Source of the DNA: Vicingaceae bacterium
GTDB taxonomy: Bacteria > Bacteroidota > Bacteroidia > Flavobacteriales_E > Vicingaceae
Direction: 5' to 3'
NCBI GenBank assembly: GCA_032251145.1
Contig: JAVVER010000001.1
Span: forward strand, 17,629-81,628
Length of the DNA: 64,000 nucleotides
In this document: positions 26,895 through 46,603 of the stretch, piece by piece
Layout of the letters: each line of letters starts with the position of its first letter
How positions within the stretch are numbered: the first letter of the stretch is position 1
Translations under genes and position numbers: made by a program
The notes under the pieces: generated by a model
What the model was told of the DNA's origin: nothing
What the model saw: the letters and a program-made list of their open reading frames with translations, nothing else
Database searches by the model: none

Positions 26895-27958
26895 TTCTCT
26901 CGCTCTAATATACCTTTAAAATTATTGATAGATTTGGTAAACGATTTTCGCATTGCTTCTTTAAACATTCTATTTAAGAAGGTGTTTTTAAAGAAAATAT
27001 CCATAGAAAGTTTTACCGTATGTTCATTAATAGGCTCAATAGTGAAAACATGGCTTGAGGTTGGTAAAAAACCTCCATTAATAACCCTTTCGGCATAAAT
27101 AATTTTGTTGTCTTGGGTGGCTTTGTTTTCTGAGGTAATTATGTTTAATGAATTAAAAGGCAATAAACATTCGTGTTGTGTTCCAATTCGAGGTACTTTA
27201 GTTTGGTCAAACTTTACTTTTTTTAACCCAACAATCCATTCTTTTTTTCGGTTGAGGTCTTTTAGTAGTTCATGTGCTTTTTCTAAAGAGGTTTGTATAT
27301 TGGTTTCAATATGAACAATAGGGTTGTCTATTGCTATTTCTGGTCTTGGAGCTGGTTCTGGAATTCTGTTCAAAAGTTCTTTTAAATAAGAAAAAAAATA
27401 GTTTACCTCTCCCAAATCTTCATAAAACGAATTGCCTTTAGAAAAATTTTTCCAATTATTAGCTTCGCCATTATCTATTAAACTTTCGGTAATTAATAAA
27501 TATTCGTGTACCTCTAAATCATTCTTCATCAGCTTATGCACTTTGGTTACATCTGGTCCCATTAATTGCAGATGACCCACAATATGTCGTTCTACAATGT
27601 TGCCATAATGCACCACAAATTTTAAAGTAAGTTCTTGGGTATGAGAACAAGATCCACAATCACAAATTCGATCTCTTTCATAAAGTTTTAGGTGTTGGTG
27701 AAATGCCAAAAACATCTTTTCGCACTGGTCGTAAATTTCTTTTACAGATGGTTTTTTACCAACGCGATAAAAAAGTACCGCATCGCCTTCAATTTCGGCA
27801 ACTTTAAGCCCTAATGTATTGTTTTTAATAATAATTTCGAGCAGCTCAGCTACAATGTGTGTTGCATGAATAATCTCAGTATCGTTTACAAAACGAGTAA
27901 AACCACTAATATCAGGTATTAGGAGTAAGGATTTCTTTAAAGTATCGTCTATTTGCAA
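26891..27958 (-). CDS. class III nucleotidyl cyclase-like (DUF2652-type) domain fused to a C-terminal SRPBCC-like domain
   Basis: PDISGFTRF (DIxGFT metal Asp) and EIEGDAVLFY (GDA metal Asp), then VHYGNIV...MGPDVTKVHKL. Its stop codon overlaps the stop of the convergent HD gene (TTAA, 26891-26894). Confidence 0.6.
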   Translation of the reverse strand: MQIDDTLKKSLLLIPDISGFTRFVNDTEIIHATHIVAELLEIIIKNNTLGLKVAEIEGDAVLFYRVGKKPSVKEIYDQCEKMFLAFHQHLKLYERDRICDCGSCSHTQELTLKFVVHYGNIVERHIVGHLQLMGPDVTKVHKLMKNDLEVHEYLLITESLIDNGEANNWKNFSKGNSFYEDLGEVNYFFSYLKELLNRIPEPAPRPEIAIDNPIVHIETNIQTSLEKAHELLKDLNRKKEWIVGLKKVKFDQTKVPRIGTQHECLLPFNSLNIITSENKATQDNKIIYAERVINGGFLPTSSHVFTIEPINEHTVKLSMDIFFKNTFLNRMFKEAMRKSFTKSINNFKGILEREN

Positions 27959-28068
27959 AAGAAAAGAGATTAGTTTTAAGTAACAAATTTAAGCTTATTT
28001 CAACTATATAAATGTAATATTGATAGTGAAAAATCATTAATATATTATAATAAATAAAATTAACTATA

Positions 28069-30099: not shown

Positions 30100-30975
30100 C
30101 AAACTGTCTTTTACTGCATTTTTTGTCCAATAAGCATTTTTTAGCGTGTTGATTTTGGTTGCTTTGGTGGTTAATTTTTCGGCTTTATCGCCCCAACCAC
30201 TCACATAAGTTTCTTCCCAACTTTCTATGGCGTAGGGAAATACATTTTGATAATGAATGGTTAGCGTTCTTTCCAGCTCAGGATAATAAATGCTGTAAAT
30301 GGTAAGGTTTTTTTCGATTGCAGTAGAAATTTCTGCACGATAAGCTTTAAGCTCTTTGTGCATTAATCTCACATAAAAAAGAGAAGGAATAAGTTTTGTT
30401 TTTCCTGTTGGCAACATTTCAGGGTTGGTTCTTATTCTCAACCAAATTTCATCTTCCAATACATCATTCGGGATAGAAGAAGTGTTATCGCCTTCACTTT
30501 CAAAATAAGAAAATGAATTAACATTCCATTTATTTTTTCTTTGGTTGAGTTGAGTAAAAGCATGTCCGCACCACTCTTGAGCCGAACTGGTTGCTTTAAT
30601 AAGCGGTTTGCTTAAATCATCAATAGGGAGAAATAAGGAATTCATCATAGAATACGGGTAAATTCCGGTATTGAATTTCTTGGTAAAATTTAGTTTTAAT
30701 ACCAAAAAATCGTTTGGTGTTGGATTATCGGCTTTTACTTGTTTTTCTTTTGAAAACGGTTCGGTAACATAAATTAATACGGCATTTCCCTGTCGGATTT
30801 CTCCGTAACGAGCTTGTTCCAATTTATAGGAAGTAATTTCTGCTTCGTTGTTAAACCAATAGTTGTTAAAAGCGGTTGATGTTTTTTCAATAATTTCAGT
30901 TTGCTTTTCGGGATTAGTAAAGCTACAAGCCGATAACAAGCCTATGATAGTAATAAATTTTAGTGTTGATTTCAT
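30076..30975 (-). CDS. lipoprotein, unknown function (last gene of the giant-OMP operon)
   Basis: Lipobox LLSAC. Its 3' end overlaps ppk1 by 24 nt, convergently. Confidence 0.55.
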   Translation of the reverse strand: MKSTLKFITIIGLLSACSFTNPEKQTEIIEKTSTAFNNYWFNNEAEITSYKLEQARYGEIRQGNAVLIYVTEPFSKEKQVKADNPTPNDFLVLKLNFTKKFNTGIYPYSMMNSLFLPIDDLSKPLIKATSSAQEWCGHAFTQLNQRKNKWNVNSFSYFESEGDNTSSIPNDVLEDEIWLRIRTNPEMLPTGKTKLIPSLFYVRLMHKELKAYRAEISTAIEKNLTIYSIYYPELERTLTIHYQNVFPYAIESWEETYVSGWGDKAEKLTTKATKINTLKNAYWTKNAVKDSLLRKELGL

Positions 30976-30989: not shown

Positions 30990-31964
30990 TTATATTTTCA
31001 AAATTAAGCCTAAACTTCCGTAATAAAAATGCCTTCCTCTGGTAGTTTCTGCAGTAATTAAATGGTGCCTAAAAAAAGTGGTAAATCTTTTTCTCGAAAA
31101 ATTAATAGCTGCGGAAACATCTACATTTACTCGGTGCATACCTTCTGTATTCATGTTATTATTTTCTCCAAAAAATCGTCCTTGTATGGTTGCTTTGTAG
31201 CCCCAAGTTACCAAATGAGCCCCGAAATCTAAAAAAAATTCACTTTCCGGTGGCGTGTCATTATGTGTTAAGTTGGTATTGTAAAAAAAGGTATTTTCTA
31301 TGCTGTTAAACTTTCCGAAACGCCCCATAAAACCTTGTTTAAAATAAGTAGCTTGCGTTCCCAAACTGGCACTTGTTTGCGAATGAATGTCAAATTTTCC
31401 AAACGATAGTAAAGGAAGATTAAACCCTACTCCAATGTTTGCTGCCACTTCATTTTGCACTTGGTTGTCCCATGCTTCAAACTTGGGATTGTTAATTAAC
31501 ACATGAAAATTATCTTGTAATTTTTCAGCTCCTGAAGCAGGTCCTAAAATGCCAATAGTTAAACTAATAAACGTAAGTGATTTTTGATTAGCGATAGTAA
31601 TTTTATTCTCGGCAAATAACCAACCTGCATACGGTCTGTCAAATTCTACAAAAACACCATTTACTTTTTTATCACGATCTTGGTCGGAGGTGTAGCCTTC
31701 TATTCCTGCATGCCAGTTTACTATTACTTTTTCTAAATTCGGTTTTAGTTTTTTAGCTAATTCAACTATTTTGCTATCATTTTTAGCTAGTTTTCTATAA
31801 TCGAAATGCAATCCAAAAGAGTAATACCTGTCGGCAACTTTTCGTTTAAAAGTTAAAATATCATTGTCTTTTTGAAGCTGAATTTCTTGGTCGTACATTT
31901 TCTTCTGAGCCCACAAATCAGAGCTGAGTAATAAGAGTAAGATGCCAATAAATCTAAATTTCAT
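30990..31964 (-). CDS. LpxR-like (DUF2219) outer-membrane lipid A deacylase family protein
   Basis: Signal peptide, N-terminal DNDILTF...DRYYSFG motif like LpxR family proteins, and a beta-barrel pattern. Confidence 0.5.
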   Translation of the reverse strand: MKFRFIGILLLLLSSDLWAQKKMYDQEIQLQKDNDILTFKRKVADRYYSFGLHFDYRKLAKNDSKIVELAKKLKPNLEKVIVNWHAGIEGYTSDQDRDKKVNGVFVEFDRPYAGWLFAENKITIANQKSLTFISLTIGILGPASGAEKLQDNFHVLINNPKFEAWDNQVQNEVAANIGVGFNLPLLSFGKFDIHSQTSASLGTQATYFKQGFMGRFGKFNSIENTFFYNTNLTHNDTPPESEFFLDFGAHLVTWGYKATIQGRFFGENNNMNTEGMHRVNVDVSAAINFSRKRFTTFFRHHLITAETTRGRHFYYGSLGLILKI

Positions 31965-32893: not shown

Positions 32894-32970
32894 CTTTTTC
32901 CTACCATTTAGGCATTAAGATTATTAAGGTTTGTTTTTAATGGTTCTTAATTTCTTAATGGTTATTTAAT
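32894..32970 (-). repeat. TTAAG/CTTAA triple-palindrome intergenic repeat, copy R4
   Basis: The reverse complement aligns with 46604-46680 along its length. The right half AACCTTAATAATCTTAATGCCTAAATGG is almost identical. Confidence 0.8.
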
Positions 32971-35900
32971 TTAAAACAAAAATCCCATTTTAAGTATAAA
33001 TAAATTTTCTTCTGACGAAACAGCGTAAGAAGCATTAATTACCAACATATCAAAAGGACTCATCCAAACACCGCCACCAACACTGTTGTGCCATTTGGTT
33101 GATGTATCGTTGCTTGTCCAAACTCTACCTAAATCAAAAAAACCAAGTACGCCCAATTGACCAGGAAATAAATACGATTTAAAATTGGTGAGTTTTATGC
33201 GTAAATCCTGATTAAAAGTTAAACTACTTCTTCCCGAAAAGCGATCTCTTCTAAACCCTCTTAAATCGCCATTACGGTGGTTCCTGTTTTGAGCCCCAAT
33301 GGTTGCTGCTTGAAAAAATTCAAATTTATCCACCAAATGAACGCCTTTTACATTGGAAGAAAAAACCACATTTTTTCCGAAAGGCAAATACATGGCAAAT
33401 TGCGACTCTAACCTTCCAAAATGTAAACTTGCATTTTCTGCTTCTCTTTCCCAACTTCCGCTAACATGAAAATTAATTCCTCGTGTAGGGATTACTTTAC
33501 TATCGGTATTATTGAAAGAATATTGTAATTCCATGCCTAAATAATTTCGTGCTGAAAGGCTGCTTACATAATTGGAAGCTAAATCGCTTGTTATAAATCT
33601 ATCTTCAGACGCCTCTACATCAATGTGTTGGTATTTTGGTCCAAATTTAATTTCATTAAATTTCCCTACATTATGCACCAACATTGGTTGAAATTTAATT
33701 TCGTTAAATCGCACTAAGTGAAATGAGTTGTCTTCGCCATTTACTACTTGAGTTTCGTTACCTAAACCATAAAAATTAGTGGTACTATTGGGGGCGTTTA
33801 CAGACGCATCAATATCTAAGTCTAATTTTTTAATTAAATCAACAAATTTTCCATCATATTCAATATTAAAGCTATTGGTCTTCAACGCTCTATTGGCAAC
33901 AAACCGATTAAAATGAGCATAAGGTTTTTTTCTAAATCCGTGTTTGGTAATGGCAACTCCACCACCTAAAAACAAGCCATCATCAATATTATAACCTACA
34001 AATAATTGTGGAATAAGCATATCGTATTTAAACTCTTTCCTGTCGTATTCGTTAATCATTTTTTGATGCGAAACCAAGTTTTTTAATTCGTTGTTTTTTT
34101 CGCAAACTACTATGTTTTCTTCTTTTTTAGTATCATAATATTTTGTTTTTTTACGAAGTCCTTTTACGTTAGAAATGTCGGTAATTTCATCGTTGCCTTC
34201 TCCGCCAATTATTCGCACTAAAATTCCTTTGTTCACTTCTCCTTCTATGGTAAAAACATCTTTTCCGCCCAAGCCATAAATGCGTATTTCTTTGGTTTCA
34301 AAACGATTAAAATCTCTGCTGTAATACAAACTGCCTTTTTCTCCTTTTTTTAGGTGATATACTTTTACAGAAGTGATGGTATCATTTACTCTAACAATTT
34401 CAAATTTTTCAGCTTTATTACTTCCCACCACATTTACGTGTTTTGCCAGTACATAATAATATCTTTCGGCAAATTCTTGTAATTTATCTCTTCTCGAAAG
34501 CAATTTTGCAGTAATTTCTTCGCCATCAAGTTTATAAATGGTATCGGGCCAGAGTTTAATGGCATTAATAATCACACTATCGGTTAAGTTTTGTTGCATT
34601 TCGGCAGCCAAATCAAGCCATTCTTGTTTGTCTAACCGAGTTAAAAATGAACGGTCGATGTATCTTCCATTAAAATTCATCCCACTAATATCACGAATAT
34701 CGTAATCGAAATGCTGGAGTTTCCGAACCACCCATTTTCTTCCTGCCAAACGAGGAATTAAGCCATCAAACTTTACAAAAGCTTGGTCTCTATCTCTCGG
34801 AATTGGAATGTAGTATTTGTTGTTATCAATTAAATGGCTGCAATGCTCATGGTTTTCTTTTGCACAAGTATATTCAGCCCAACGCCATTGGTCTTCGTGC
34901 CTGTCCCAATCGCCAATAAGCATATCAAACAAACGATTTCGGAGCATTTCTTCCTCATCAACAACAAAATTATGATCATCTAACACCTTATGAATTAATT
35001 TTTGAGAATTGATGGCATTGGTGGTGTAACCAAAGTTTCCGGTTGAAGAAACATCTTTGGCAGCACGTTGCTCAAACAACATGAGTTGGTTGGCAAAATC
35101 TTCACGATATTCCAACAAGTGAGGGTCGTTTGGCACAGCAACTAGCTGTGGTTTAGAATGTAAAATACCCACTGCTTCTGCCATTGGCGGAATAACAAAA
35201 GCACTGTAAGGATGAGCAGTAGAAATTTGATCTTGCACCACTTCGGCAGCTGCGGTATTTCTTAATTCTTCGGGCAATGCTGCTGATGGGTCTTTTTGTA
35301 TGGATCGAAAAACATATTCGTTGCCATTTTCGGCTTTTAATCGGAGCGATTTAGTTTGTTGTCCGCCACCTCGCTGAATTGGTGTTAAACCTCCATAGGT
35401 ATTATGAATGTCAATTGTTGGCACTTCAACAGGAGTTTGCCATGCTTTTCGGTAATGTTCGCCCAGCAAAAACTTTTTCATAAAACTTGCTTCATAGTTT
35501 TCACCTGGGATTAATGTCATTGTTTTTGGAATACTTAATGTATCGGTAATATCAACATCTTCTTTACTTTCTTTTTGCTTTGCTTCAACCAAAATTTTGC
35601 TAAAAATAAGTTCCGATTTTTCGTTGGAAATTTGCCACGTTTCCATTAAAACAGCACCAGAATTAAGTACAATTAATTTAAAAAAACCTTTTTCTTCGGC
35701 AGAAAAATCAGGTGTTTTTAGTTGCTTAACGGGTGTTGTTTTACTTCCCGAACCACTTACAATATAATGGTGGTTTTGTTGTTCTGTTTTATCAAAATAT
35801 TGCAAATTATGTTCATGCCCGGCAGCATAAATCAGGTTTGGATGAAATTTAAAAACGTGCTGCAGTTCGCTAATCATTTCTTGGTATTCGGCATGGTTTA

Positions 35901-36699
35901 CATCTTGCAGATTGCCAATTTTTTTGCGATACAAAGGATAAATTGATCCTAAAATAGGCAGCGGAAGGTATAAATTTTTATTAAGATTAGTAAGTGGAAA
36001 AAGATGATCGGAAAAAGTAGCATAACCATTGTGTTCGCCTTTAGTCATTAACGGATGATGCCCTACAATTAAAACGGTTTTGTCCGTATTTTCTTCTAAA
36101 ATGTCTTTAATACTTGCAATTACATCGGCTTTGGTTTCTTCATCACAAGCTCCAGTTTCTATAGGCCCTTTTTCGTATTGATGCAGCCACCACTGTGTGT
36201 CAATGGCAATAATCACCATTTTTTTACTTATTTTTACTTTGTATGGGCCTGGACAGCCTCTTTCGGGAATTAACACGTCTTTTACATTAAAAGCATTTTC
36301 TAAATATTTTTGTTGATGATTGATATAGCTCAATCCGTTGCGATTACCTTGGTTCCAATCGTGATTGCCTGGAATAAAATAAATGGTTGACTTTAGCTCT
36401 TTTAACCGATTGATTTGATAATCAATTATCGCTTTAGCTTGTTCGTGATTTTTTTTGTTTTTTGGCGGAATTCCATTTGGATAAACATTATCTCCCAAAA
36501 AGAAAATGGTGCTTTTTTCTTCAATGGTTTTTGCTTGTTGAATTAATTCATTAAAAACGGCTTGTGTTTTTTCTTTTGGTTCACCAGCATCGCCTACTAA
36601 AAAGATAACATGATCAATACTGTCTTTATGTTGAGTAAAGGCTTTGCTAATTAGTAAAAAACTAAAAAAGAGGAGTGTGATATGATGTTTCGTGTTCAA
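32971..36699 (-). CDS. giant OM protein, paralog 3: metallophosphoesterase (intact motifs) + DRHxDNW module + Omp85-type barrel
   Basis: 1242 aa. TTG start is forced, since there is an in-frame stop 12 nt upstream and no earlier ATG. Signal peptide present. GDAG, GDNVYPNG, GNHDW, GHHP, GHEH. Central LIGDWDRHEDQWRW and PRDRDQAF. C-terminus RGFRRDRFSG ... GGGVWM ... MGFLF. Confidence 0.75.
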   Translation of the reverse strand: MNTKHHITLLFFSFLLISKAFTQHKDSIDHVIFLVGDAGEPKEKTQAVFNELIQQAKTIEEKSTIFFLGDNVYPNGIPPKNKKNHEQAKAIIDYQINRLKELKSTIYFIPGNHDWNQGNRNGLSYINHQQKYLENAFNVKDVLIPERGCPGPYKVKISKKMVIIAIDTQWWLHQYEKGPIETGACDEETKADVIASIKDILEENTDKTVLIVGHHPLMTKGEHNGYATFSDHLFPLTNLNKNLYLPLPILGSIYPLYRKKIGNLQDVNHAEYQEMISELQHVFKFHPNLIYAAGHEHNLQYFDKTEQQNHHYIVSGSGSKTTPVKQLKTPDFSAEEKGFFKLIVLNSGAVLMETWQISNEKSELIFSKILVEAKQKESKEDVDITDTLSIPKTMTLIPGENYEASFMKKFLLGEHYRKAWQTPVEVPTIDIHNTYGGLTPIQRGGGQQTKSLRLKAENGNEYVFRSIQKDPSAALPEELRNTAAAEVVQDQISTAHPYSAFVIPPMAEAVGILHSKPQLVAVPNDPHLLEYREDFANQLMLFEQRAAKDVSSTGNFGYTTNAINSQKLIHKVLDDHNFVVDEEEMLRNRLFDMLIGDWDRHEDQWRWAEYTCAKENHEHCSHLIDNNKYYIPIPRDRDQAFVKFDGLIPRLAGRKWVVRKLQHFDYDIRDISGMNFNGRYIDRSFLTRLDKQEWLDLAAEMQQNLTDSVIINAIKLWPDTIYKLDGEEITAKLLSRRDKLQEFAERYYYVLAKHVNVVGSNKAEKFEIVRVNDTITSVKVYHLKKGEKGSLYYSRDFNRFETKEIRIYGLGGKDVFTIEGEVNKGILVRIIGGEGNDEITDISNVKGLRKKTKYYDTKKEENIVVCEKNNELKNLVSHQKMINEYDRKEFKYDMLIPQLFVGYNIDDGLFLGGGVAITKHGFRKKPYAHFNRFVANRALKTNSFNIEYDGKFVDLIKKLDLDIDASVNAPNSTTNFYGLGNETQVVNGEDNSFHLVRFNEIKFQPMLVHNVGKFNEIKFGPKYQHIDVEASEDRFITSDLASNYVSSLSARNYLGMELQYSFNNTDSKVIPTRGINFHVSGSWEREAENASLHFGRLESQFAMYLPFGKNVVFSSNVKGVHLVDKFEFFQAATIGAQNRNHRNGDLRGFRRDRFSGRSSLTFNQDLRIKLTNFKSYLFPGQLGVLGFFDLGRVWTSNDTSTKWHNSVGGGVWMSPFDMLVINASYAVSSEENLFILKMGFLF

Positions 36700-36772
36700 G
36701 GTTTCAAGTTATTTTAAGTTTCTTCATTTTATAATTTATTCGCTTAATTCGTTCTCAAAAGACTGAACTAAT

Positions 36773-36883
36773 ATGTTAGAGTTCGAGGCTTTCGTAGTTT
36801 TGGAAATCAGGAGTTTACTTTCGTAAATGACTGGTTTTCAAAACAAGAATAACGAAGAAATCGGACATATTAGACAGTCTCTA
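36773..36883. repeat. 111-nt intergenic repeat, copy B
   Basis: 98/111 identical to 248-358. Hairpin arms are 36797-36818 and 36823-36844. The last 3 nt are the stop codon of paralog 2. Confidence 0.8.
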
Positions 36884-39800
36884 ATTAAAAGATTTTCCGA
36901 GACTAAACAATACAAAAACATTTTCTTCGTCAGAATGAGCTACCGATAAATTAAAAGTAAACTGTTCGTCTAAAAATCCCCAATAAATTCCACCACCGTA
37001 GGCACTGTGCCATTTGTTGGACAAATCTAAATCATCATAAATTCTACCGGTATCAAAAAAAGCTTTTATTCCCATTTTCATGGGTAAAAATGAAGTGGTA
37101 AAGTTAGCCAATTGTATGCGTAGTTCATTGTTTAAAAACAGGGTAGATTTCCCTGTAAATCTGTTTCTTCTAAACCCTCGCAAATTGTTGTTGCTACCCA
37201 AAAAAACCATATTGTAAAAAGGAATGTTTCCTTCGCTTATGGAACCTCCAGCTTTTGTGGCTAAAGTGATGGGAGATGGAATTCTTGCAGTTAAATAATG
37301 TTCTATAAATCCTTTAAAAATGTGGTAATCGGTTTTTTCGGAAACTACTTGTCCGTTTTGGTATTCGCTAACCAGTCGAACTCCCGACTCTGGAAGGTTA
37401 GAACGGTCTCTAAAATCTAAATCTAATCCTGCGGTGCTAACAATAATATCATTTCCTCTTGTTCCAAAAATGAGTGAAGAACTGTTTTCATCGGTTGCAG
37501 TAAAAAGTGTATTATCAGAAATTTGTGCAGAGTTGTACTCGTATTGAGTGGAGATATAAAAACTGCTTTTTTTACGAAAATCTCTAATTAAACCAAGGTG
37601 TGCCGAATAAGTGTTGTAAGTGGTTTTGTAATAATCAGCCGCACTCAAACTATCATCCTTTACCGTGTTGTTTCCTAAACCATAAAAGCTAGTTAGTTTG
37701 TTGTGGTTAGCTACTAACCCACCAACATTTACATCCCATTTGTGTAATACATGTCGGAACCTGCTGCTGTATTCAAAAATATTATTTTGTTCGGTGCTTA
37801 CTTCTAAATTAAATTTGTGCTTGGTAGAATAATCGGTGTTTTTGTAGTTTTCCCGTTGAGTAAAAACAACTCCTACACTAGTTCCAAAGCCATTGTCGGC
37901 ATTGTAGTTAAGCGAAAACAAAGGTAAATACCTGTTGTATTTAAATTTGGTGGGTTGGAAATCGTATAAATCTTCATTCCAAGTATTTATTTGCTTTGCT
38001 TCTGTTCCTAAAAACGAGTTTTCGTTAGTAGATTTCTCATAAACATAGGTTTGTTTACCAAGTGTTTTTACAGAAGAGCTATCCAAAATAACATCATCAC
38101 CTTTTCCGCCAACAATAATGATGGGTATGGATTTTTTCGCTTTACCTTTTAGCACAAAAATATCTTTACTGCCTAATCCATAAAGTCTAATTTCTTTGGT
38201 TTCTGATGGAAAAAATGTACGATGATAAAGTTGTTTCGTGCCTTTATGATGATTATCAACATCAAATATCCCAACATCAACCGTACCTGACGGATTTCTA
38301 GTAATTTCAAAAAATTCTTTTTCGTTCGTTCCAACAACATCTACTTGTTTGGCTAAAAGAAGATAATATTCTTCGGCATATTTATCCAAATCTTTTATTC
38401 TACTTTTTAATTTTTCGGCTATGGTTTTTCCCGATAGTTCATAAATTTCTTTGGGCAATGTTTGAGCAGCAATATCAATTAAACTATCGTTTAGCGAATG
38501 TTGAATGTAATCGCTTGCTTCCAGCCAATCTTTTCGGGTCATTTCGTTGGTTAACAACCTATCTTGTGGGGTTGCTACAAACATCAAACTTTTAACATCA
38601 TTAATTTTATATCCAAAATTTTCTCCTGCTTCTAGTATCCATTTTCTATCTAACAACCAAGGAATTATTCCATCCCATTGAACAAAAACTAGATCTCTAT
38701 CTCTTGGAATTGGTCGATAAAAAACGCCTGTATCGGTTTTGTAACCTGCCCATTTCCAATTGTCTTGATGTTTACCATGGTCGCCCACCAAAATATCAAA
38801 AACCCTGGCTTTGGTATATTCTTTTGCATCAATTTTATGATTTTGCTTGTCGTAGCGTTTTTTGTTTAACTCATGACTTTGGAGCAAGTAATCAGCATTA
38901 GCGAAAGCATTTTTTATCTTTTTAGGATTTTTTTGGTGATCTTCTAACGTACCTAACATTCCGCTATATTTATTGTAAATACCCAATTTAGGATGAGAAG
39001 GCAATACAAAAAGCTCAGGCTGAGCATGCAAAATAGAAGTGTTATCTAATAGTTTGCTTACAATTAATCCTCCGTAAGGATGCTGCATAGAAACATTATC
39101 TTGCAATTGGCGAGCTAATAAGGAGTGTTTTAGTTCGGCACTTAATCCTCTGGTAGCATCTTTATTTACCGAACGAAAAGTATAAGCAAAACCATCATTT
39201 CCAATCATTTTTACAGAAGTGGTTTGGTGTCCGCCACCTCTGTCGTAAGCAACTAATCCGTTTTTGGTGGTATCCATGTTTAAAATGGGCACTTCAACAA
39301 AAGTATTCCAACTTTTACGGTAATGTGTTCCTATAATAAACTTTCTAAAACGAGAGGCGTCATAATTTCCTGCATTAACTAAAGCTACATCTTCATTTTC
39401 AGGAAAATAAGTAGAAGACACATCTTTTAAACAACTTTTGTTGGCATAGTTTTCAGGAATGTCGTTTTTGCTCGAATCTAAAAGCGATTTGTAAAGCATT
39501 ACGCTTTTATCTAGCTCAAATTTTTCGTTTGTATAGTGGTAATTATGACTAACCACCGAGCCATCAATATTGTAATTTACTTTAGTGATGCTTGGTTTAG
39601 AAGTAGAATAAACGGCAAACCTTGTTTTTCTACCTTTTTTAGATGATTCTGGTAAACCGTTATTGATAAAATAGTTGTCAAAATCCTTAATTATTTGCGT
39701 GTTGTATTCGTGTGCCGAAAAATAAATTACCCCACTTTTTACCGACATCCTATTTAAAATTTTTTCTCTTATGGGATTAAAATGGGAGTTAATGATGTCT

Positions 39801-40525
39801 TTTTTTCCTCCAATATTTTGATGGTAATAGGTTTTAAAACTTCCATAAACAGGTGGAAATAAATGATTTGTAAAAGGCAGGTTTCCTTGTTCTACTAAAG
39901 GGAAATGCCCGGCTATAATTAAGTTTTTATCTTCGGTTTCTGCCAAGGCATTTTCTATCTCAATAATAAAATCTTTGGGGGTGTTTATATCGCAATTGGC
40001 ATTTACTACTTCTGGTTTTTTATAAGGATGATTCCACCATTGGGTATTGATTACCATCAACAACAAATTACTATCTAGCTCAATAAGTTCTGGACCGGGA
40101 CAACCCTTATCCAACACCCATTTAATGTTTTTAAATCCTTTGTATTCAACTAAATTTTCTAAGTATTTCACTTTTTTAATTCCTTTTTTACCCGAGTTAT
40201 CCCAATCTCTATCGCCAGCAACAACAATGGTTTGTGTGTTTGGAATTCCAGACAATTCGTTCAAAAAATTATACAACGGTAAGGAATCATTTTTTAAAAA
40301 TGCTGAACCATTTTTTTTGATTAAATCGCCATTTAAGATTAAAAGGGCAGGTAATTTTTCTTGAGCAATCAATGTTTTTAAAGCTGCTGCATAAGTAGGT
40401 TTATTTTTAATATCAACCACATTACCGATATTAATTACCTGATAATAAGGAACAACTTCAGTACTTTGCGAAAAAATACTTTTAGCAAAAAGGGATAGCA
40501 GCAATATTATAAAAAGTTGTTTCAT
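36881..40525 (-). CDS. giant OM protein, paralog 2: degenerate metallophosphoesterase + DRHxDNW-like module + Omp85-type barrel
   Basis: Same layout as paralog 3, but with motifs GDRDW, GHFP, AHEY and GDHGKHQDNWKW. The track start at 40543 lies inside a repeat, so I prefer ATG at 40525 (MKQLFIILLLSLF signal peptide). Confidence 0.75.
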   Translation of the reverse strand: MKQLFIILLLSLFAKSIFSQSTEVVPYYQVINIGNVVDIKNKPTYAAALKTLIAQEKLPALLILNGDLIKKNGSAFLKNDSLPLYNFLNELSGIPNTQTIVVAGDRDWDNSGKKGIKKVKYLENLVEYKGFKNIKWVLDKGCPGPELIELDSNLLLMVINTQWWNHPYKKPEVVNANCDINTPKDFIIEIENALAETEDKNLIIAGHFPLVEQGNLPFTNHLFPPVYGSFKTYYHQNIGGKKDIINSHFNPIREKILNRMSVKSGVIYFSAHEYNTQIIKDFDNYFINNGLPESSKKGRKTRFAVYSTSKPSITKVNYNIDGSVVSHNYHYTNEKFELDKSVMLYKSLLDSSKNDIPENYANKSCLKDVSSTYFPENEDVALVNAGNYDASRFRKFIIGTHYRKSWNTFVEVPILNMDTTKNGLVAYDRGGGHQTTSVKMIGNDGFAYTFRSVNKDATRGLSAELKHSLLARQLQDNVSMQHPYGGLIVSKLLDNTSILHAQPELFVLPSHPKLGIYNKYSGMLGTLEDHQKNPKKIKNAFANADYLLQSHELNKKRYDKQNHKIDAKEYTKARVFDILVGDHGKHQDNWKWAGYKTDTGVFYRPIPRDRDLVFVQWDGIIPWLLDRKWILEAGENFGYKINDVKSLMFVATPQDRLLTNEMTRKDWLEASDYIQHSLNDSLIDIAAQTLPKEIYELSGKTIAEKLKSRIKDLDKYAEEYYLLLAKQVDVVGTNEKEFFEITRNPSGTVDVGIFDVDNHHKGTKQLYHRTFFPSETKEIRLYGLGSKDIFVLKGKAKKSIPIIIVGGKGDDVILDSSSVKTLGKQTYVYEKSTNENSFLGTEAKQINTWNEDLYDFQPTKFKYNRYLPLFSLNYNADNGFGTSVGVVFTQRENYKNTDYSTKHKFNLEVSTEQNNIFEYSSRFRHVLHKWDVNVGGLVANHNKLTSFYGLGNNTVKDDSLSAADYYKTTYNTYSAHLGLIRDFRKKSSFYISTQYEYNSAQISDNTLFTATDENSSSLIFGTRGNDIIVSTAGLDLDFRDRSNLPESGVRLVSEYQNGQVVSEKTDYHIFKGFIEHYLTARIPSPITLATKAGGSISEGNIPFYNMVFLGSNNNLRGFRRNRFTGKSTLFLNNELRIQLANFTTSFLPMKMGIKAFFDTGRIYDDLDLSNKWHSAYGGGIYWGFLDEQFTFNLSVAHSDEENVFVLFSLGKSFN

Positions 40526-40530
40526 TATTT

Positions 40531-40680
40531 GTTTTTCTATCATTAAGGCATTAAGGTTATTAAGTGTTTGTTCTTAATGTTTCTTAACTTCTTAATGGTT
40601 TAATTATTTGTTTACTATTTTTTTCCACCATTAAGGCATTAAGTTTATTAAGGTTTTTTTCTTAATTCGTAATTCTCAAA
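40531..40680 (-). repeat. two tandem copies (R5, R6) of the TTAAG/CTTAA intergenic repeat
   Basis: 40531-40613 and about 40614-40680. Both contain CATTAAGGCATTAAG(G/T)TTATTAAGG, the reverse complement of the conserved right half. Confidence 0.75.
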
Positions 40681-40688
40681 TCGTACAT

Positions 40689-43600
40689 TTATATGATTAA
40701 TCCCAGTCCAATTTTTAAGAAAGCCTTTTGCTCATCAGAATATTCTACATTAACTTGTATGGTTATGTAATCTTTACTGATGGGTGTTAAATAAATTCCT
40801 CCGCCATAACCGTTGTGCCATTTTTTTTCTGTGAAGCTTTCATTTTCAACTATCTGACCAACATCTAAAAACGCATTTAAGCCGTAATACATAGGCAAAA
40901 AGCTCGATTTACTTTTTCCTAAATGGAAACGCAAATCGGTATTAACATAGTTGGTTGCCTCACCCGAAAACCGATTTTGTAAATATCCACGCAAGTGATA
41001 CGATTGCCCTATGCTGGCTAAATGATAAAAAGGAATGTTTTTGCCAAAAGTTCTTTCTGTTCCAGCTTTAACACCGAGTGTAATAGGAATAACAATGCGT
41101 GTAGTACTGTAATAACTAATTTCTGCACTTGTTTTGCCAAATGCTTTAGACGTTGTAAAAAGCGATTTATTTTCTAAAGTAACCCGAATACCTTTAGTGG
41201 TAAAGCTTGGGCTATCTCTAAAATCGAGGTCGAATTTTATTTCTCCACCTGTAGCATTGGTTGGTTCTAATTGTGGATTAGGAAACACATCAAAAAACGA
41301 TTGGTCGGAATGTCCTTTACTCAATAATTCGCTAACTGCATTAAGGGATATAAAGCTTCTTCGTAAAAAACGATAGGTAATTCCTCCCTTTAAAATAGCA
41401 CCTTGATACCTGGCTTTGTAATACCCTGCATCTTCCAGCGAATCTACTAAAACGGTTTTGTTGCCTACGCCATAAAAACTATAAAAAGGAAAGAAAGCAC
41501 CTAACTCAGCATTTCCGTTGAGGTAAAAATCGGAGTTACCAATATTTCTTTCAGTTTGCAAGGAAAAATAATTACTTCCGCCTGTGGTAGAAAATAGCTT
41601 CACATCGTGCAAGGTTTTGTATAATTTGTTGGCATAGCCAAAGCGTTTCATTTGCAAATTTATTCCACCACCAAAACCATCGTCAGGGTTTACTACTAAT
41701 AATGGAATTGGCAAGTAAGTATTGTATTTAAATGCGTCTTGATCAAATTCGTTTAACCTACTTTTTTCAGATAAAATGGTTCGAGTTTCTTTGCTTTTTT
41801 CGGTAAGCACATTGTTAGGATAATCGTAAATTAATGTTTTTTTAGTACCAAAACGCACGTTGGATTCGTCAATTACATTGTCATTACCATCGCCTCCCAT
41901 AATTCTTACTAAAATACTCTTGTTGCTTGTTCCATATACATAAAAACTATCGGCTTTAGCTAACCCAAACAAACGAATTTCTTTGGTTTCGTTAGGATAA
42001 AAAGTTCTGTTTAATAACACATTAGAAGTATCTTCTTTAGCGTACATACTCACTTCAACAGCTCCTGAAGGTAACCGATTTATCTTAAAAAACTCTGCTT
42101 TATTGGTGCCAACAATGTCAACTTCTTTAGAAAGTAACAAGTAATGTTTTTCTACAGCTTTATTTAATTCTGTTTTTCGTTTCTTCAATTTTTCGGCAAT
42201 TTCTTTTCCCGATTTTTCTTGCAGCGGCTCAGGAAAAGCAAGTTTGGCATCATCAATAACTTCGTCAGTAATTTGTGCATTAATGGTTTTAGCAGCTTTT
42301 AGCCAAGCTTGTTTATCCATACCCGATAAAAGCAGCCTATCTAAATGAGAACCTTTAATGGTTAAGCTTTTTATGCCAGTAAAGTGGTTGTTAAAATTTT
42401 CCCGAAAAGGAATTGCCCAATCTCTATCAGCCAAATAATAAAAGAAGCCATTCATTCTTGAAAAAGCGTGGTCTCTATCTTTCGGGTAAGGTTTGTAGGT
42501 GGTAATGCCTTGTTCGTTTTTATAGCCTATCCATTTCCAATTGTCTTGATGCCTGTCCCAATCGCCAATTAAAATATCAACAACTCTGGCTTCGGCATAT
42601 TGCATGGTATCAATATTGGTTTTTGGCGATTTATAAATTTTTTGAAGTAAACTCAAACTGCTTTTCACTTGGTCGGCTTGTTGGTAGCTTTTTGTTATAT
42701 CGTCTAATTCGGTAGGTTTGGGTTCTAACATTCCATACATTCCCGAAAACTGACTTCTAAAATCACCTAATTTTTCTGAGTCGGGCATAATGTAAAGTTT
42801 AGGAGTACCGTGATAAAGATTGGTTGCGTCTAGCAACTTTGCAACAAACAATGCACCGTATGGATGTTGAGTGGCAGTCATATCTTGCATAATGTTTGCC
42901 ACTAAATCAATCCGCAATTCAAAAGGAATGGCTTTTATGGGGGTTTTGTCGATAGAACGGAAAGCATATTTTCTTCCATCTTTATCAACAAATTGAAGCG
43001 AAATGGTTTGTAAACCACCTCCTTTTTTTAGAGGAGTAAGTCCGCCAAAGGTGGTGTCTAAATCAAGTGTTGGAATAGTTACGGGTGTTGTCCACGCATC
43101 GCGATATAAAGAACCGAAAAAAAGTTGTTTAAATTTTGATGCTTTGTAATCTCCTGCAACAATACTGTCGTTGGTAAAGTGTTTTAATTCGGCATTAGAT
43201 TTTATTTTATTTTTAAAAATATGTGTTTTCTTTTTACTTTCCAGCACAACACTTTTTGCTAACTCAAAGTTGTTTTCTTTTTTATCTAACACAAAAAACT
43301 TACTTACAATTGGCGTATTTTTTTGAATTTCTAACTTAACAAAACCAGTATTGTTGGTTTTAAAAATGGTGTTTTCTAAAGCACTAACTTGAGCACTTTT
43401 TACCAAGTTTCCTGAAATGATTTGATAGTTATAGTTCAAATTTAGCAACTGCATATCGTATTCGTGAGCCGAGCACATCACTACATTTTCGTGTTTTAAT
43501 AATACATCTTTAATTTCTTTGATGTAAAGCTGATATTGGTCGTTGCTTAAATCTTGAACAGAACCTATATTTTGACGATAGCAATGATAAAACGTACCAT

Positions 43601-44336
43601 ATAAAGGAATGAAAGTTTTATTATCAGGGTCGCTATGCGAAAACGGGAAAAATTGCCCCATAAAATTGGAGTTGCCACCATAAACTCCACCCGAAGTAAC
43701 GGGATGATGTGTTATAAAAATTACCTTTCTGTTTCCAGCATTTTCTATAGCAGCATCTAGTTCGTCTAAAATTTCAATTTTTAAAATCTCTTTACATTCA
43801 GAATCTATAGGAAGCACTTTTCGGTAAGGGTGTAGCCACCACTGAGAGTTAATGGCAATTATTCTAATATCATCTCCAATATCTTTTACATAAGGTCCTG
43901 GACAATCATTTTTTGGAAAAAAGATATTTTCGCCAAGTAGTTTTTTATAGGATTTCTGTAACGAACTTACTGTGTCTAAACCGTAATAACCAGAATTATC
44001 CCAATCTAAATCTCCAGTAACGGCTATGATTTCTGCCCCTTTTTCTTTTACTTTTTTAAGAAAATCGGATAGTATTTTGGTGTTTTCGGGCAAATCTTGA
44101 CGAACATCTCCTAAAAGCAGTAGTGTGAAAGGTTTTCCGTTTTGTTCTTGATGTAAAAAGCCTTCAAATTGTGTTAATCTTTCGGGGAGTTTAGTTCCAT
44201 TAAGATTACCTAAAACATAAATGTTGTTTTGAGCAATAACCAAATTTATAGATAGTATTAATACTACAAAGCTTAGTAAAAAGTGATGCAATTTATGAAT
44301 TACATTAATATTAATTTTGAAAGCAGAATTCTTCAT
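40689..44336 (-). CDS. giant OM protein, paralog 1: degenerate metallophosphoesterase + DRHxDNW module + Omp85-type barrel
   Basis: 1215 aa with a signal peptide. GDLDW, THHP, AHEY. LIGDWDRHQDNWKW and PKDRDHAF. C-terminus RGYLQNRFSG ... GGGIYL. Its ATG overlaps the stop of the upstream PAP2_3 gene (TAATG). Confidence 0.75.
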   Translation of the reverse strand: MKNSAFKININVIHKLHHFLLSFVVLILSINLVIAQNNIYVLGNLNGTKLPERLTQFEGFLHQEQNGKPFTLLLLGDVRQDLPENTKILSDFLKKVKEKGAEIIAVTGDLDWDNSGYYGLDTVSSLQKSYKKLLGENIFFPKNDCPGPYVKDIGDDIRIIAINSQWWLHPYRKVLPIDSECKEILKIEILDELDAAIENAGNRKVIFITHHPVTSGGVYGGNSNFMGQFFPFSHSDPDNKTFIPLYGTFYHCYRQNIGSVQDLSNDQYQLYIKEIKDVLLKHENVVMCSAHEYDMQLLNLNYNYQIISGNLVKSAQVSALENTIFKTNNTGFVKLEIQKNTPIVSKFFVLDKKENNFELAKSVVLESKKKTHIFKNKIKSNAELKHFTNDSIVAGDYKASKFKQLFFGSLYRDAWTTPVTIPTLDLDTTFGGLTPLKKGGGLQTISLQFVDKDGRKYAFRSIDKTPIKAIPFELRIDLVANIMQDMTATQHPYGALFVAKLLDATNLYHGTPKLYIMPDSEKLGDFRSQFSGMYGMLEPKPTELDDITKSYQQADQVKSSLSLLQKIYKSPKTNIDTMQYAEARVVDILIGDWDRHQDNWKWIGYKNEQGITTYKPYPKDRDHAFSRMNGFFYYLADRDWAIPFRENFNNHFTGIKSLTIKGSHLDRLLLSGMDKQAWLKAAKTINAQITDEVIDDAKLAFPEPLQEKSGKEIAEKLKKRKTELNKAVEKHYLLLSKEVDIVGTNKAEFFKINRLPSGAVEVSMYAKEDTSNVLLNRTFYPNETKEIRLFGLAKADSFYVYGTSNKSILVRIMGGDGNDNVIDESNVRFGTKKTLIYDYPNNVLTEKSKETRTILSEKSRLNEFDQDAFKYNTYLPIPLLVVNPDDGFGGGINLQMKRFGYANKLYKTLHDVKLFSTTGGSNYFSLQTERNIGNSDFYLNGNAELGAFFPFYSFYGVGNKTVLVDSLEDAGYYKARYQGAILKGGITYRFLRRSFISLNAVSELLSKGHSDQSFFDVFPNPQLEPTNATGGEIKFDLDFRDSPSFTTKGIRVTLENKSLFTTSKAFGKTSAEISYYSTTRIVIPITLGVKAGTERTFGKNIPFYHLASIGQSYHLRGYLQNRFSGEATNYVNTDLRFHLGKSKSSFLPMYYGLNAFLDVGQIVENESFTEKKWHNGYGGGIYLTPISKDYITIQVNVEYSDEQKAFLKIGLGLII

Positions 44337-45133
44337 TAGGATATTTTTCTTAACCCGAGTTTGCTTGAATTTACAAGCTGTAAATTTATCACTTTAACTT
44401 TCTTAGCTAGGTATAAAAAAGGATATGGTAAGAGCACTACAATTCCTCCTACAATAGCATCCATAAAAAAATGATTGCCGGTAACAACTATTACCAAAAG
44501 CACAAATATAGGGTAAAGGAGCAACAACCAAGTAGTAATTTTATTTTTAGTTAAAAAAGCAACAACAACACCAATAAGCAAAGCATTTCCAAAGTGCATG
44601 GATGGTACTGCGGCATATTGATTAAATAATCCAGAAAAAACACCCGAATAAAGATTTACATCACTTATTTTAAGTAAGGTATCGGTAAAACCAATATCAT
44701 TCAACATTCTGGGAGGGGCACACGGAAAATTAACATAAAAATACAAGGTAAGTGTATTGGCTAGTAAAAAGCCATTTCTCACAAATTTATAGTGAGTCTT
44801 TTTTTGATGATACAGCCAAACGAAAAAAGCTATAGTAATCGGTAAATGAGCTGTTACGTAAAATTTATTTAATATGGTTACTAATAAATGAGAATTAAGA
44901 AAATATTGTTGAATATCAATTTCATAAAAGATGCCTAACATCATTTCAATGTCCACTAAAAAATGAGCATTATGAAAAGCAGTTTGCTCATCACCAATGG
45001 CAAAATACCTAGATATTTTATAAAAGACCAAAAACAATAAAAAAATTAGTAACTCCTTTAATCCTTTATTTTTCAAAGATAAATACAAATATTTTGAATA
45101 GAATTCGTTGATGGTTTGATGTGAAAAAGTCAT
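44336..45133 (-). CDS. PAP2_3 (Aur1/inositol-phosphorylceramide synthase-like) membrane phospho-headgroup transferase
   Basis: AAVPSMHFG and TGNHFFMDAIVGG motifs, polytopic. The track start at 45316 would overlap the divergent gene at 45254, so I prefer ATG at 45133 (MTFSHQ). Confidence 0.65.
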   Translation of the reverse strand: MTFSHQTINEFYSKYLYLSLKNKGLKELLIFLLFLVFYKISRYFAIGDEQTAFHNAHFLVDIEMMLGIFYEIDIQQYFLNSHLLVTILNKFYVTAHLPITIAFFVWLYHQKKTHYKFVRNGFLLANTLTLYFYVNFPCAPPRMLNDIGFTDTLLKISDVNLYSGVFSGLFNQYAAVPSMHFGNALLIGVVVAFLTKNKITTWLLLLYPIFVLLVIVVTGNHFFMDAIVGGIVVLLPYPFLYLAKKVKVINLQLVNSSKLGLRKIS

Positions 45134-45253
45134 ATTAAATGCAAATAAATTTTTGAAAAGATAGACGATTGAAAATACTTTCCTGACATTAAAATCAAAT
45201 TTTGTAAGGTTTTCCGCTTTATTGCGACTAATTTTGGGAAACAAATTTTTTCT

Positions 45254-46603
45254 ATGAGTAAAGAACATATTGTCATTATTGGAAATGGTATTTCGGGAGT
45301 TTCTGCCGCACGTCATATCAGAAAGCTATCCGATAAAAAAATTACCATTATTTCTGCCGAAACTGATTACTTCTTTTCAAGAACAGCTTTGATGTATGTT
45401 TACATGGGACACATGAAGTTTGAACACACACAACCCTACGAACCTTGGTTTTGGAAGAAAAATAACATTGAGCTTAAAAAAGCTTTTGTGAAAACGGTTG
45501 ATACTGCAAACAAAACACTTGTTTTTGATACCGCTGAAACCATGAGTTATGATAAATTAATTATTGCTACGGGTTCAAAACCGAACAAATTTGGTTGGCC
45601 TGGACAAGATGCTGACGGGGTAATGGGCATGTATCATAAACAAGATTTAGAAAATTTAGAAAAATATGCTCCAAACAATAAAGCATGTAAAAGAGCGGTA
45701 ATTGTTGGCGGTGGATTAATAGGTATTGAACTAGCCGAAATGCTTGTTAGCCGAGCTATTCCCGTAACTTTTTTGGTAAGAGAAAACAGTTTTTGGAGCA
45801 AAGTACTTCCAAAAGAAGAATCAGCAATGATTAATAAACATATTCTTGAGCATCATATCGATTTACGGCTAAATACTAATCTTAAAGAAATTAAAGCTGA
45901 TGAAAACGGCAAAGTAAAATCCGTAATTATTGAAGAAACTGGTGAAGAACTGCCTTGCAATGTGGTTGGACTTACAGCTGGAGTTTCACCCAATATTGAT
46001 TTTTTAAAAGATTCGGGAATAACCTTAGGAAGAGGCGTCAAAGTAAACCGATTTTTAGAAACCAATGTGCCAGATGTTTTTGCTATTGGTGATTGTGCCG
46101 AACAACACGAACCTATTGGAGAAAGAAGAGCCATTGAAGCAGTTTGGTACACTGGAAGAATGATGGGTGAAACAGTAGCTCAAACCATTTGTGGAAATAA
46201 ATTGGCTTACCAACCCGGACATTGGTTTAATTCGGCTAAATTTTTAGATATTGAATATCAAACTTACGGTTGGGTATGGGCGGAACCTAAAGAAAACGAA
46301 AAACATTTTTATTGGGAACACGAAAGCGGTAAAAAATCTATTCGTTTGAGTTATGATAAAAACACCCACGAATTTATTGGTGTAAACAATTTTGGAATTA
46401 GAATGCGACACGAGTTCTTTGACAAAATGCTTACCGAAAAACAATCTGTGGAGTATGTGTTGGAACATTTAGCTGATGCCAACTTCGACCCCGAATTTTA
46501 CCAATTGCACGAGGCGGAAATTGTTGCCAAATTCAATAAAGAAAACAATACCAATATTACATTGAAAAAGAAAAATTGGAAACGAATTTTTTCGATGTCT
46601 TAA
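45254..46603 (+). CDS. NAD(P)/FAD-dependent (pyridine nucleotide-disulfide type) oxidoreductase
   Basis: Two Rossmann motifs (IVIIGNGISG, AVIVGGGLIGIE) and a GD motif (AIGDCAE). Confidence 0.8.
   Translation: MSKEHIVIIGNGISGVSAARHIRKLSDKKITIISAETDYFFSRTALMYVYMGHMKFEHTQPYEPWFWKKNNIELKKAFVKTVDTANKTLVFDTAETMSYDKLIIATGSKPNKFGWPGQDADGVMGMYHKQDLENLEKYAPNNKACKRAVIVGGGLIGIELAEMLVSRAIPVTFLVRENSFWSKVLPKEESAMINKHILEHHIDLRLNTNLKEIKADENGKVKSVIIEETGEELPCNVVGLTAGVSPNIDFLKDSGITLGRGVKVNRFLETNVPDVFAIGDCAEQHEPIGERRAIEAVWYTGRMMGETVAQTICGNKLAYQPGHWFNSAKFLDIEYQTYGWVWAEPKENEKHFYWEHESGKKSIRLSYDKNTHEFIGVNNFGIRMRHEFFDKMLTEKQSVEYVLEHLADANFDPEFYQLHEAEIVAKFNKENNTNITLKKKNWKRIFSMS

Follow-up and report, generated by a model that had tools for sequence, protein, structure and literature searches.

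The 64,000-nucleotide stretch of a Vicingaceae genome analysed here (assembly GCA_032251145.1, contig JAVVER010000001.1), referred to below as the window, carries three tandem, co-oriented and closely spaced genes, P0001, P0002 and P0003, each of which encodes a metallophosphoesterase (MPE) fold, a kinase-like domain and an Omp85-type beta-barrel in a single polypeptide. These ancient paralogs represent two subfamilies of a single outer-membrane protein family of Bacteroidota. The explanation that we favour, with a probability of about 55%, is that P0001 is a canonical member with a site of the purple acid phosphatase (PAP) type, and that P0002 and P0003 are variants retained by selection, whose site has been rebuilt and which are functional on their own. 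The latter point follows from the existence of a conserved alternative set of residues in the variants, from the purifying selection on their MPE domains, and from genomes that contain variants alone. A preliminary description of the same DNA had taken P0001 for the only active enzyme and the other two proteins for pseudo-enzymes. The genes and the domains delimited in them are as follows.

32971..36699, minus strand: P0001 (paralog 3 of the preliminary description), 1242 residues, canonical member
35545..36627, minus strand: MPE domain of P0001, residues 25-385, all PAP ligands present
34450..35517, minus strand: kinase-like domain of P0001, residues 395-750
34060..34449, minus strand: all-beta linker of P0001, residues 751-880, with two GGxGxD-like repeats
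32974..34059, minus strand: Omp85-type beta-barrel of P0001, residues 881-1242 (Pfam PF01103)
36881..40543, minus strand: P0002 (paralog 2), 1220 residues, typical member of the variant clade
39389..40462, minus strand: variant MPE domain of P0002 (AlphaFold2 model with pLDDT 91.4)
38357..39385, minus strand: kinase-like domain of P0002, with G590 at the Asp of DRH
40689..44336, minus strand: P0003 (paralog 1), 1215 residues, member of a narrower branch within the variant clade
43170..44228, minus strand: variant MPE domain of P0003
42135..43166, minus strand: kinase-like domain of P0003, with an intact DRHQDN motif

The three proteins align from end to end with a pairwise identity of about 31% over the full length, and follow a common plan (signal peptide, PAP-like MPE domain, CtkA/CotH/PI4K-like kinase fold, all-beta linker, Omp85 barrel). 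Three copies of the family only were found by searching the source genome. In Pfam, P0001 is matched by Metallophos (PF00149; E=1.7e-7, score of 32.3 bits, cut-off 21.5) and by Omp85 (3.4e-12), P0002 is matched by ShlB (PF03865, 1.6e-7) alone, and P0003 by nothing. PF00149 is thus a Pfam match for neither P0002 nor P0003, and this signature singles out P0001. The NCBIfam model Omp85_fam can be aligned, below its cut-off, with the C-terminal part of each protein, and a profile of the family matches GAP50, TRAP/PAP5 and BamA barrels in the PDB, with E-values of about 1e-6 for BamA and 1e-9 for 9ccg, the barrel that is nearest by sequence in this database. From PF01103, ShlB and the profile matches, the C-terminus is an Omp85-type barrel.

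The family corresponds to the 'Metallo' class of Omp85 proteins, which is already catalogued and functionally uncharacterised: it was defined by bioinformatics, in Bacteroidota, by the association of PF00149 with an Omp85 barrel (Heinz & Lithgow 2014, PMC4104836), and P0001 fits this definition directly according to Pfam. The paper terms PF00149 a 'metalloprotease', whereas the actual family is that of calcineurin-like phosphoesterases, and it mentions neither the kinase-like middle domain nor a subfamily devoid of the PF00149 signature. Conservation is described there as limited to the genus level, whereas we find the proteins across many families of the class. Homologs of P0001 number in the thousands in Bacteroidota, and a match to the family was found in 45 of 301 genomes drawn evenly from the class.

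The motif strings quoted in the preliminary description are all present, in open reading frames that lie exactly at the coordinates given there: GDAG (within VGDAGEP), GDNVYPNG, GNHDW, GHHP and GHEH in P0001; GNVVD, NGDLIKKNG, GDRDW, GHFP and AHEY in P0002; GNLNG, GDVRQD, GDLDW, THHP and AHEY in P0003. Three database searches gave 319 homologs, and when the 292 full-length ones are aligned with MAFFT, the strings of the three paralogs fall in the same columns, so that the differences between the paralogs are not an artefact of alignment. The alignment of P0001 with the phosphatase TRAP/ACP5 pairs GDNVY with GDNFY, GNHD with GNHD, GHHP...GEH with GHYP...AEH and GHEH with GHDH; in the alignment of the 292 proteins, the changes fall on genuine metal-ligand positions.

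P0001 alone has the seven PAP ligands (D37, D70, Y73, N112, H214, H295 and H297) and both second-shell histidines (H113 and H223), in line with the claim that one paralog alone keeps the metal-binding motifs. In P0002 and P0003 the seven positions read N, D, deletion, D, H, H, Y. The site of P0002 is made of N41, D73, a deletion of the tyrosine, D111-R112 (in GDRDW), H213, H278 and Y280, and that of P0003 of N44, D77, a deletion of the tyrosine, D109-L110 (in GDLDW), H210, Y219, H291 and Y293. Hence, in comparison with the PAP set, the two variants retain D70, H214 and H295 only, plus an Asp in place of Asn at the fourth position of the divalent-metal site. The second-shell His223 (P0001 numbering), which is aligned with the His of the 'AEH' of TRAP, is a Tyr in P0003 and is deleted in P0002. 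It had been correctly noted that the Asn-His pair of GNH is replaced in two of the paralogs. A metal ligand is also lost in GHxH, but it is the last His (changed to Tyr) and not the first residue, as had been thought: this Gly is not a ligand, and it is G, S or A in the variant clade. The change of motif I Asp to Asn, the four-residue deletion that removes the motif II Tyr and the change of the second-shell His223 come in addition to what had been described.

AlphaFold2 (AF2) models were obtained for the middle domain of P0001 and the N-terminal domain of P0002. The latter has a mean predicted local distance difference test (pLDDT) score of 91.4, and its top 45 Foldseek matches in the PDB all have the MPE fold: GAP50 comes first (E=1.2e-11), then the kidney-bean and sweet-potato PAPs, GpdQ and Rv0805, and the other matches include UshA, LpxH, VPS29 (rank 31), Dbr1, MPE-fold subunits of polymerases, and PP1. 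The alpha-beta-beta-alpha sandwich of MPEs is assigned to P0002 on the basis of the AF2 model, and to P0001 and P0003 by homology.

In PAPs such as the kidney-bean enzyme and pig uteroferrin, we take the ligands of Fe(III) to be the motif I Asp, the Tyr, the last His and the bridging motif II Asp; the bridging Asp also binds the divalent metal, together with the Asn of motif III, the His of motif IV and the first His of motif V. On this basis, P0001 is most likely a functional phosphoesterase of the Fe(III)/M(II) type. In the variants, the trivalent (M1) half-site appears to be dismantled, since the Asp is replaced by Asn, the Tyr ligand is deleted and the last His is variable, while all four divalent (M2) positions would still be competent to bind a metal (Asp, Asn changed to Asp, His, His). 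Both general-acid/catalytic histidines are replaced, mostly by Arg and Tyr; the exceptions are P0003, which has a Leu for the Arg, and P0002, which has a small deletion for the Tyr. As judged from their residues, P0002 and P0003 appear unable to form a canonical dimetal centre and should not be classed as PAPs, and their chemistry is probably not that of PAPs.

That these changes are not particular to the window is clear from the phylogeny of the homologs. In the FastTree tree of the 292 proteins, P0002 and P0003 belong to a single clade of 163 with a support of 1.0, and the 129 others include P0001. The canonical signature D37/D70/Y73/N112/H113/H214/H295/H297 is complete in 115 of these 129, and the string DDYNHHHHH is likewise found in 115. 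In the variant clade (P0001 numbering throughout), one finds N37 in 157/163, D70 in 161/163, a four-residue deletion that takes out Y73 in 160/163, D112 in 160/163 and R113 in 138/163 (GNH becomes GD(R)), H214 in 163/163 and H295 in 158/163; position 297 is variable (Y44/H32/K28). Position 223 is His in 124/129 canonical proteins and Tyr in 140/163 variants. The MPE columns that are conserved to at least 90% in each clade and yet differ between the two are D37N, N112D and the Y73/G76 deletion only. Five site positions of the variants are at least 96% conserved, although the mean pairwise identity of the domain is 36%. The Leu110 of P0003 is a departure from this pattern: its orthologs in genus g186 have R at this position, and L, I, K or H is found at the Arg position within the P0003 subclade.

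Scrambled MPE sites are also found within the canonical clade: NN-NKYQQK in a third Zobellia copy (L008, G321:C1:3459500-3464200), EDFNERYHR in G196 (L016, G196:C33) and GDYHDHYLQ in genus g38 (L028/L029). These degenerated copies keep canonical-type kinase-like motifs. They have degenerated independently and look quite unlike the fixed set of the variants; the substitutions of the latter are a conserved alternative set that marks an old monophyletic clade rather than random decay. We therefore consider that the variants form an old, conserved and previously undescribed subfamily with what looks like a rebuilt half-site.

The dN/dS ratio (omega) was calculated domain by domain, in comparison with the orthologs in G007, a congeneric genome that has the same trio (dS of 0.3-0.6). 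For the MPE domain it is 0.095 in P0001, 0.099 in P0002 and 0.096 in P0003, and for the kinase-like domain it is 0.03-0.06 in all three paralogs. Purifying selection on the variant MPE domains equals that on the canonical domain in strength. It could be imagined that P0002 and P0003 have kept their N-terminal domains as relics nearing loss, and that the kinase-like domain and the barrel alone matter. There are indeed shorter relatives of about 860 residues that have a kinase-like domain and a barrel but no MPE; conservation is lower in the variant MPE than in the canonical one, and full degenerations have occurred independently in the canonical clade. However, an omega of about 0.10 that equals the canonical value, a fold predicted with a pLDDT of 91 and five site positions conserved to at least 96% at 36% mean pairwise identity make such a neutral decay highly improbable.

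The distribution of the copies bears on the model of the preliminary description in its strict form, in which P0001 would be the sole catalytic subunit and P0002 and P0003 dead scaffolds in an obligate hetero-oligomer. It is important to note that the class-level search scores two candidates per genome, so that copy numbers are lower bounds, and that the copies were classified from the fetched DNA. The tandem trio, in the same order, is kept in G007, G010 and the metagenome contig L004, as expected if one active and two degenerate copies formed a conserved unit. All three types also occur in G001, not in tandem: the P0003-like gene lies on the strand opposite to the canonical one, and the P0002-like gene is a fragment on another contig. 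A canonical copy accompanies the variant or variants in eight genomes or contigs (G000, G001, G007, G010, L004, Zobellia G321, G119 and G156), but in the last three it is sometimes megabases away or on another contig. Also in favour of a hetero-oligomer, the genes of the trio are tandem, co-oriented and close, and a scan found no terminator-like site in the intergenic gaps of this region. The MPE fold serves as a scaffold in VPS29. It does so too in GAP50 (PMC2172186), and the Omp85 protein PlpD dimerises (PMC11116518).

On the contrary, G339 and G340 (97-98% complete) contain a single member of the family, a P0003-like variant with the signature ND-DRHYHY, and G341 contains a P0003-like and a P0002-like copy but no canonical one. 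In these three genomes, which belong to a sister genus of the same family, the variant lies at the conserved locus with PAP2, ppk1 and HD-PycTM. The rule that a variant is always accompanied by a canonical copy, which held in the first eight genomes or contigs, is refuted by these three. Variant and canonical copies are dispersed in Zobellia and in G119, and variant loci L005, L020 and L021 are solitary. G343, of the same sister genus as G339-G341, has a canonical copy alone, between PAP2_3 and PAP2. The active-site substitutions are conserved and not drifting, with an omega of about 0.1 for the variant MPE. The existence of variant-only genomes shows that the variant needs no 'active' partner, and the data do not support an obligate complex in which one active subunit is joined by two scaffolds; we consider it unlikely. 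What stands of the earlier proposal is that P0001 alone is of the PAP type; the other two are neither products of decay nor partners that depend on it, and the term pseudo-enzyme is premature for the whole protein, since the kinase-like domain is highly conserved in all three. Hetero-oligomers of the paralogs are possible by analogy with the PlpD homodimer, and in our explanation mixed dimers may form but would not be required.

In genus g1, 4 of 11 genomes have the family, among them 3 with the complete tandem trio, and it was not found in the 7 others, some of which are complete or near-complete. This patchy occurrence suggests accessory genes that are acquired or lost together.

Another hypothesis is that the variant MPE domains are still hydrolases, either mononuclear or with a rebuilt second site, which act on another phospho-substrate (a lipid head-group diester or pyrophosphate, for example), so that the trio would have three specificities. 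All four M2 positions are either retained or replaced conservatively, the site is lined by an Arg and a Tyr that are new and conserved, selection is strong, variants occur alone at a conserved locus, and the neighbouring genes encode lipid-phosphate enzymes (PAP2, PAP2_3 and LpxR). However, the variants lack the Asp of motif I, the Tyr that serves as a ligand, the last His and both histidines of the general-acid type, and in characterised MPEs single changes at these positions lower the activity by orders of magnitude. P0003 moreover lacks the Arg (Leu110), and its subclade is variable at this position (L/I/K/H). Such neo-functionalised enzymes are conceivable, but we consider the hypothesis doubtful.

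We thus prefer the explanation in which P0001 is of the PAP type and the variants are selected proteins that work on their own. Most likely, the variant MPE domain is a catalytically weak or inactive pocket for one metal and/or a phosphate group, or has an altered chemistry; the function that is shared by the whole family would lie with the kinase-like domain and the barrel. The trio of the window would be a lineage-specific build-up of one canonical and two variant copies beside envelope-lipid enzymes of the PAP2 and LpxR families.

Several points weigh against this explanation. The assignment of ligands to M1 and M2 is presumably valid for this family, but it is carried over from PAP structures. 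A second site could have been rebuilt, with the conserved Asp at position +3 of motif I (present in 116/163), Tyr223 or Tyr297 as candidate ligands, and the variants could still be dimetal hydrolases by means of such a site. The sample of homologs is skewed towards the best matches of the three query paralogs. The number of columns that are conserved to at least 90% is 32 in the variant MPE and 56 in the canonical one, and the mean pairwise identity of the domain is 0.356 and 0.414, respectively; this lower conservation fits a partial relaxation. The periplasmic topology that we assume is drawn from an analogy with PlpD; no POTRA domain was matched by Pfam, and the modelled residues 751-880 of P0001 do not have the beta-alpha-alpha-beta-beta pattern of this domain. 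Last, the kinase fold would sit in a compartment that is poor in ATP, for which the explanation gives no reason.

Omp85 proteins are known as insertases and translocases. PlpD showed recently that their scaffold may bear a periplasmic enzyme as well. The present family adds a phosphatase fold and a kinase fold, both of them enzyme-like, to the Omp85 scaffold, and it is widespread in Bacteroidota and unstudied. Its two old subfamilies are a natural experiment in the repurposing of a dimetal phosphoesterase site. Annotation pipelines name the variants merely 'BamA/TamA family', which calls for caution, and the family has a testable tie to envelope lipid-phosphate enzymes and polyphosphate genes.

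The fold of the middle domain was recognised through AF2 and Foldseek alone. The model of the P0001 domain has a pLDDT of 93.6 and a predicted template modelling score (pTM) of 0.93, and its top 50 Foldseek matches are all protein kinases or small-molecule phosphotransferases with the kinase fold. CtkA from Helicobacter pylori is the best match (E=2e-6, TM-score of 0.56 normalised to the target), followed by CotH from Bacillus cereus, Rio2 and PI4KIIalpha; the Foldseek probability is 1.0 for atypical kinases, with E-values from 2e-6 to 8e-4. A single-sequence search of the PDB with this domain gave no match, and no Pfam kinase model scored above threshold with E-values considered up to 10, the weak match of P0003 to PI3_PI4_kinase having E=0.036. 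The motifs of P0001 are a GGGxQT loop, K469, GDWDRHEDQW (596-605) and PRDRDQAF (634-641), and the GDWDRHxDQW loop resembles the DRHxxN motif of PI3/4-kinases. K469, D597, H601, D603, D636 and D638 (P0001 numbering) are near-invariant among the homologs; the roles of the kinase residues were assigned by motif spacing alone.

In all three paralogs, this domain is the most conserved of the protein. D599 and Q604 are each found in 129/129 canonical proteins, and in the variant clade N604 is found in 162/163 and position 599 is Gly or Ser in 137/163. P0002 has K461, D588, G590 (for the Asp of DRH), H592, N595 and D615-R-D617, and reads GKHQDN; P0003 has the intact DRHQDN (D594, H596 and N599) and D620-R-D622. 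The fold is common to this domain and to CtkA (3akl), CotH (5jd9), PI4KIIalpha (4hnd) and Rio2, and the domain has a Gly-rich loop, an invariant Lys, a DRHxxN/Q-like loop and an invariant DRD, but the identity with these atypical kinases is only 10-15%, and the domain is predicted to be extracytoplasmic. The canonical copies differ from the kinases by a Gln at the metal-binding Asn, and most variants, including P0002, by a Gly or Ser at the catalytic Asp. No publication that deals with the variant subfamily or with this kinase-like domain came up in the literature search. P0001 alone has a Cys/His-rich insertion of 12 residues, CAKENHEHCSHL, at residues 612-623 (34831-34866), just past the catalytic-loop motif, and this is the sole low-confidence stretch of the kinase-domain model (block pLDDT of about 61).

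Residues 751-880 of P0001 are all-beta in the AF2 model, and the last 40 or so residues before the barrel lie outside the model. This linker contains RTX-like repeats of the GGxGxD type, such as YGLGGKDVF and IGGEGNDEI, at residues 808-839 (34183-34278); such repeats are found at residue 812 in P0002 and at residue 814 in P0003. The Gly/Asp repeats hint at a calcium-binding beta-roll.

The mammalian-type PAP TRAP/ACP5 (1ute, 2bq8, 1war) is the best PDB sequence match of P0001, with a profile E-value of about 3e-8; here, however, the MPE domain is part of a longer polypeptide that also has a kinase-like domain and a barrel in the outer membrane. VPS29 of the retromer (3psn) is an example of the MPE fold serving as a scaffold, in a small cytosolic eukaryotic protein; we take its motif III Asn to be replaced by Asp and the next His to be replaced too, as in the variants. 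GAP50 from Plasmodium and Toxoplasma (3tgh) is the best Foldseek match of the N-terminal domain of P0002 and the best MPE match of the profile (2.2e-9). It is a membrane anchor with a PAP fold in which few of the catalytic residues are conserved, and TgGAP50 had no detected activity (PMC2172186); the activity of PfGAP50 is disputed (PMC8949495). P0002 shares with it the PAP fold and the loss of ligands, but the pattern of loss differs, since in GAP50 an Asp stands for the His of motif IV and motif V reads 'GHDNN'; moreover, GAP50 is eukaryotic and has neither the kinase-like domain nor the barrel.

PlpD is a homodimer that associates a periplasmic enzyme domain with an Omp85 barrel and is linked to outer-membrane lipid homeostasis (PMC11116518). 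By virtue of an N-terminal enzyme domain fused to such a barrel, the PlpD/FplA ('type Vd') proteins provide a working model for the topology and the possible dimerisation of the present family. By this analogy, the MPE and kinase-like domains most likely face the periplasm, beneath the barrel. PlpD carries a patatin phospholipase domain and a POTRA domain, whereas in the family an MPE domain is followed by a kinase fold and an all-beta linker, and POTRA was undetected; Pfam and Foldseek found no patatin domain, the N-terminal domain being an MPE. The metallophosphoesterase from Riemerella anatipestifer was considered as a characterised homolog and discarded, since reviews describe it as an effector secreted by the type IX secretion system and not as an Omp85 fusion.

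The genes around the trio encode the following proteins.

44336..45316, minus strand: PAP2_3-family membrane phosphatase/transferase, upstream (Pfam PF14378, 2.2e-36); its stop codon overlaps the start of P0003
31984..32907, minus strand: PAP2 lipid-phosphate phosphatase, downstream (Pfam PF01569, 5.2e-19)
30990..31964, minus strand: LpxR-family outer-membrane protein, lipid A deacylase family (Pfam PF09982, 5.3e-41)
30076..30975, minus strand: predicted lipoprotein of 299 residues with an LSAC lipobox and without Pfam match, last gene of the same-strand run
28069-30099: ppk1, convergent with the lipoprotein gene
25743-26894: membrane protein with HD and PycTM domains, downstream of the operon

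The trio has the same order, together with PAP2, LpxR and ppk1, on contig L004, at about 66% identity. A PAP2 gene follows the family gene in L004, L024 and L077-L080, and flanks it in L049. The flanks (8 kb) of 31 canonical-clade loci were surveyed; the conserved neighbourhood was noted in the window and at loci L048-L076, L023, L024 and L077-L079. A homolog of the HD-PycTM protein adjoins the family gene in 28/31, an SdiA-regulated/YjiK-like gene (PF06977) is directly upstream in about 20/31, ppk1 is within 8 kb in 13/31, and DUF2652 is found in 6/31; in the window, HD-PycTM, DUF2652 and ppk1 lie just downstream of the operon (25743-30099). The solitary variant copies (Zobellia, L020 and L021) have no HD-PycTM, SdiA-regulated/YjiK-like or ppk1 neighbours. 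The neighbourhood of the family genes suggests a chemistry related to envelope lipid phosphates or to polyphosphate.

The HD-domain protein that adjoins 28/31 loci and the ppk1 gene that is near in about half of them are the reasons to consider a link to polyphosphate. The whole family might then be a periplasm-facing machine that processes phosphoryl groups, in which the variant site would be a phosphate receptor with a single metal, lined by Arg and Tyr. The kinase fold would work without cytoplasmic ATP, on or with polyphosphate or lipid phosphates for example, and PlpD-like mixed dimers of canonical and variant proteins would join hydrolysis to binding. Taken as a whole, this reading is distinctly improbable.

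The 3' ends of the lipoprotein gene (30076-30975) and of the convergent ppk1 overlap by 24 nucleotides. A scan for sigma-70 promoters gave fewer matches than in shuffled sequences and is uninformative for Bacteroidota. Intergenic ATTAAG.../...CTTAAT repeats occupy the gaps at 32894-32970 (before PAP2) and 40531-40688 (before P0002), and the 3' end of the repeat, CTTAATGCCT(T/A)AATG, provides the ATG that is annotated as the start of P0002 (40543) and that of the PAP2 gene (32907); the gap before P0001 (36700-36880) is unlike these two.

Last, we note that the modules of these proteins also exist separately elsewhere, as stand-alone PAP-like MPE genes (about 390-410 residues), stand-alone kinase-like genes (about 495 residues) and the proteins of about 860 residues that join a kinase-like domain to a barrel. 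At G141:C1:22668-28662 and G304:C7:55867-61853, an MPE gene lies about 2.5 kb upstream of such a gene, and further separate-module loci are G189:C18:84848-86146, G046:C1:182495-183793 and G025:C52:92354-93367.

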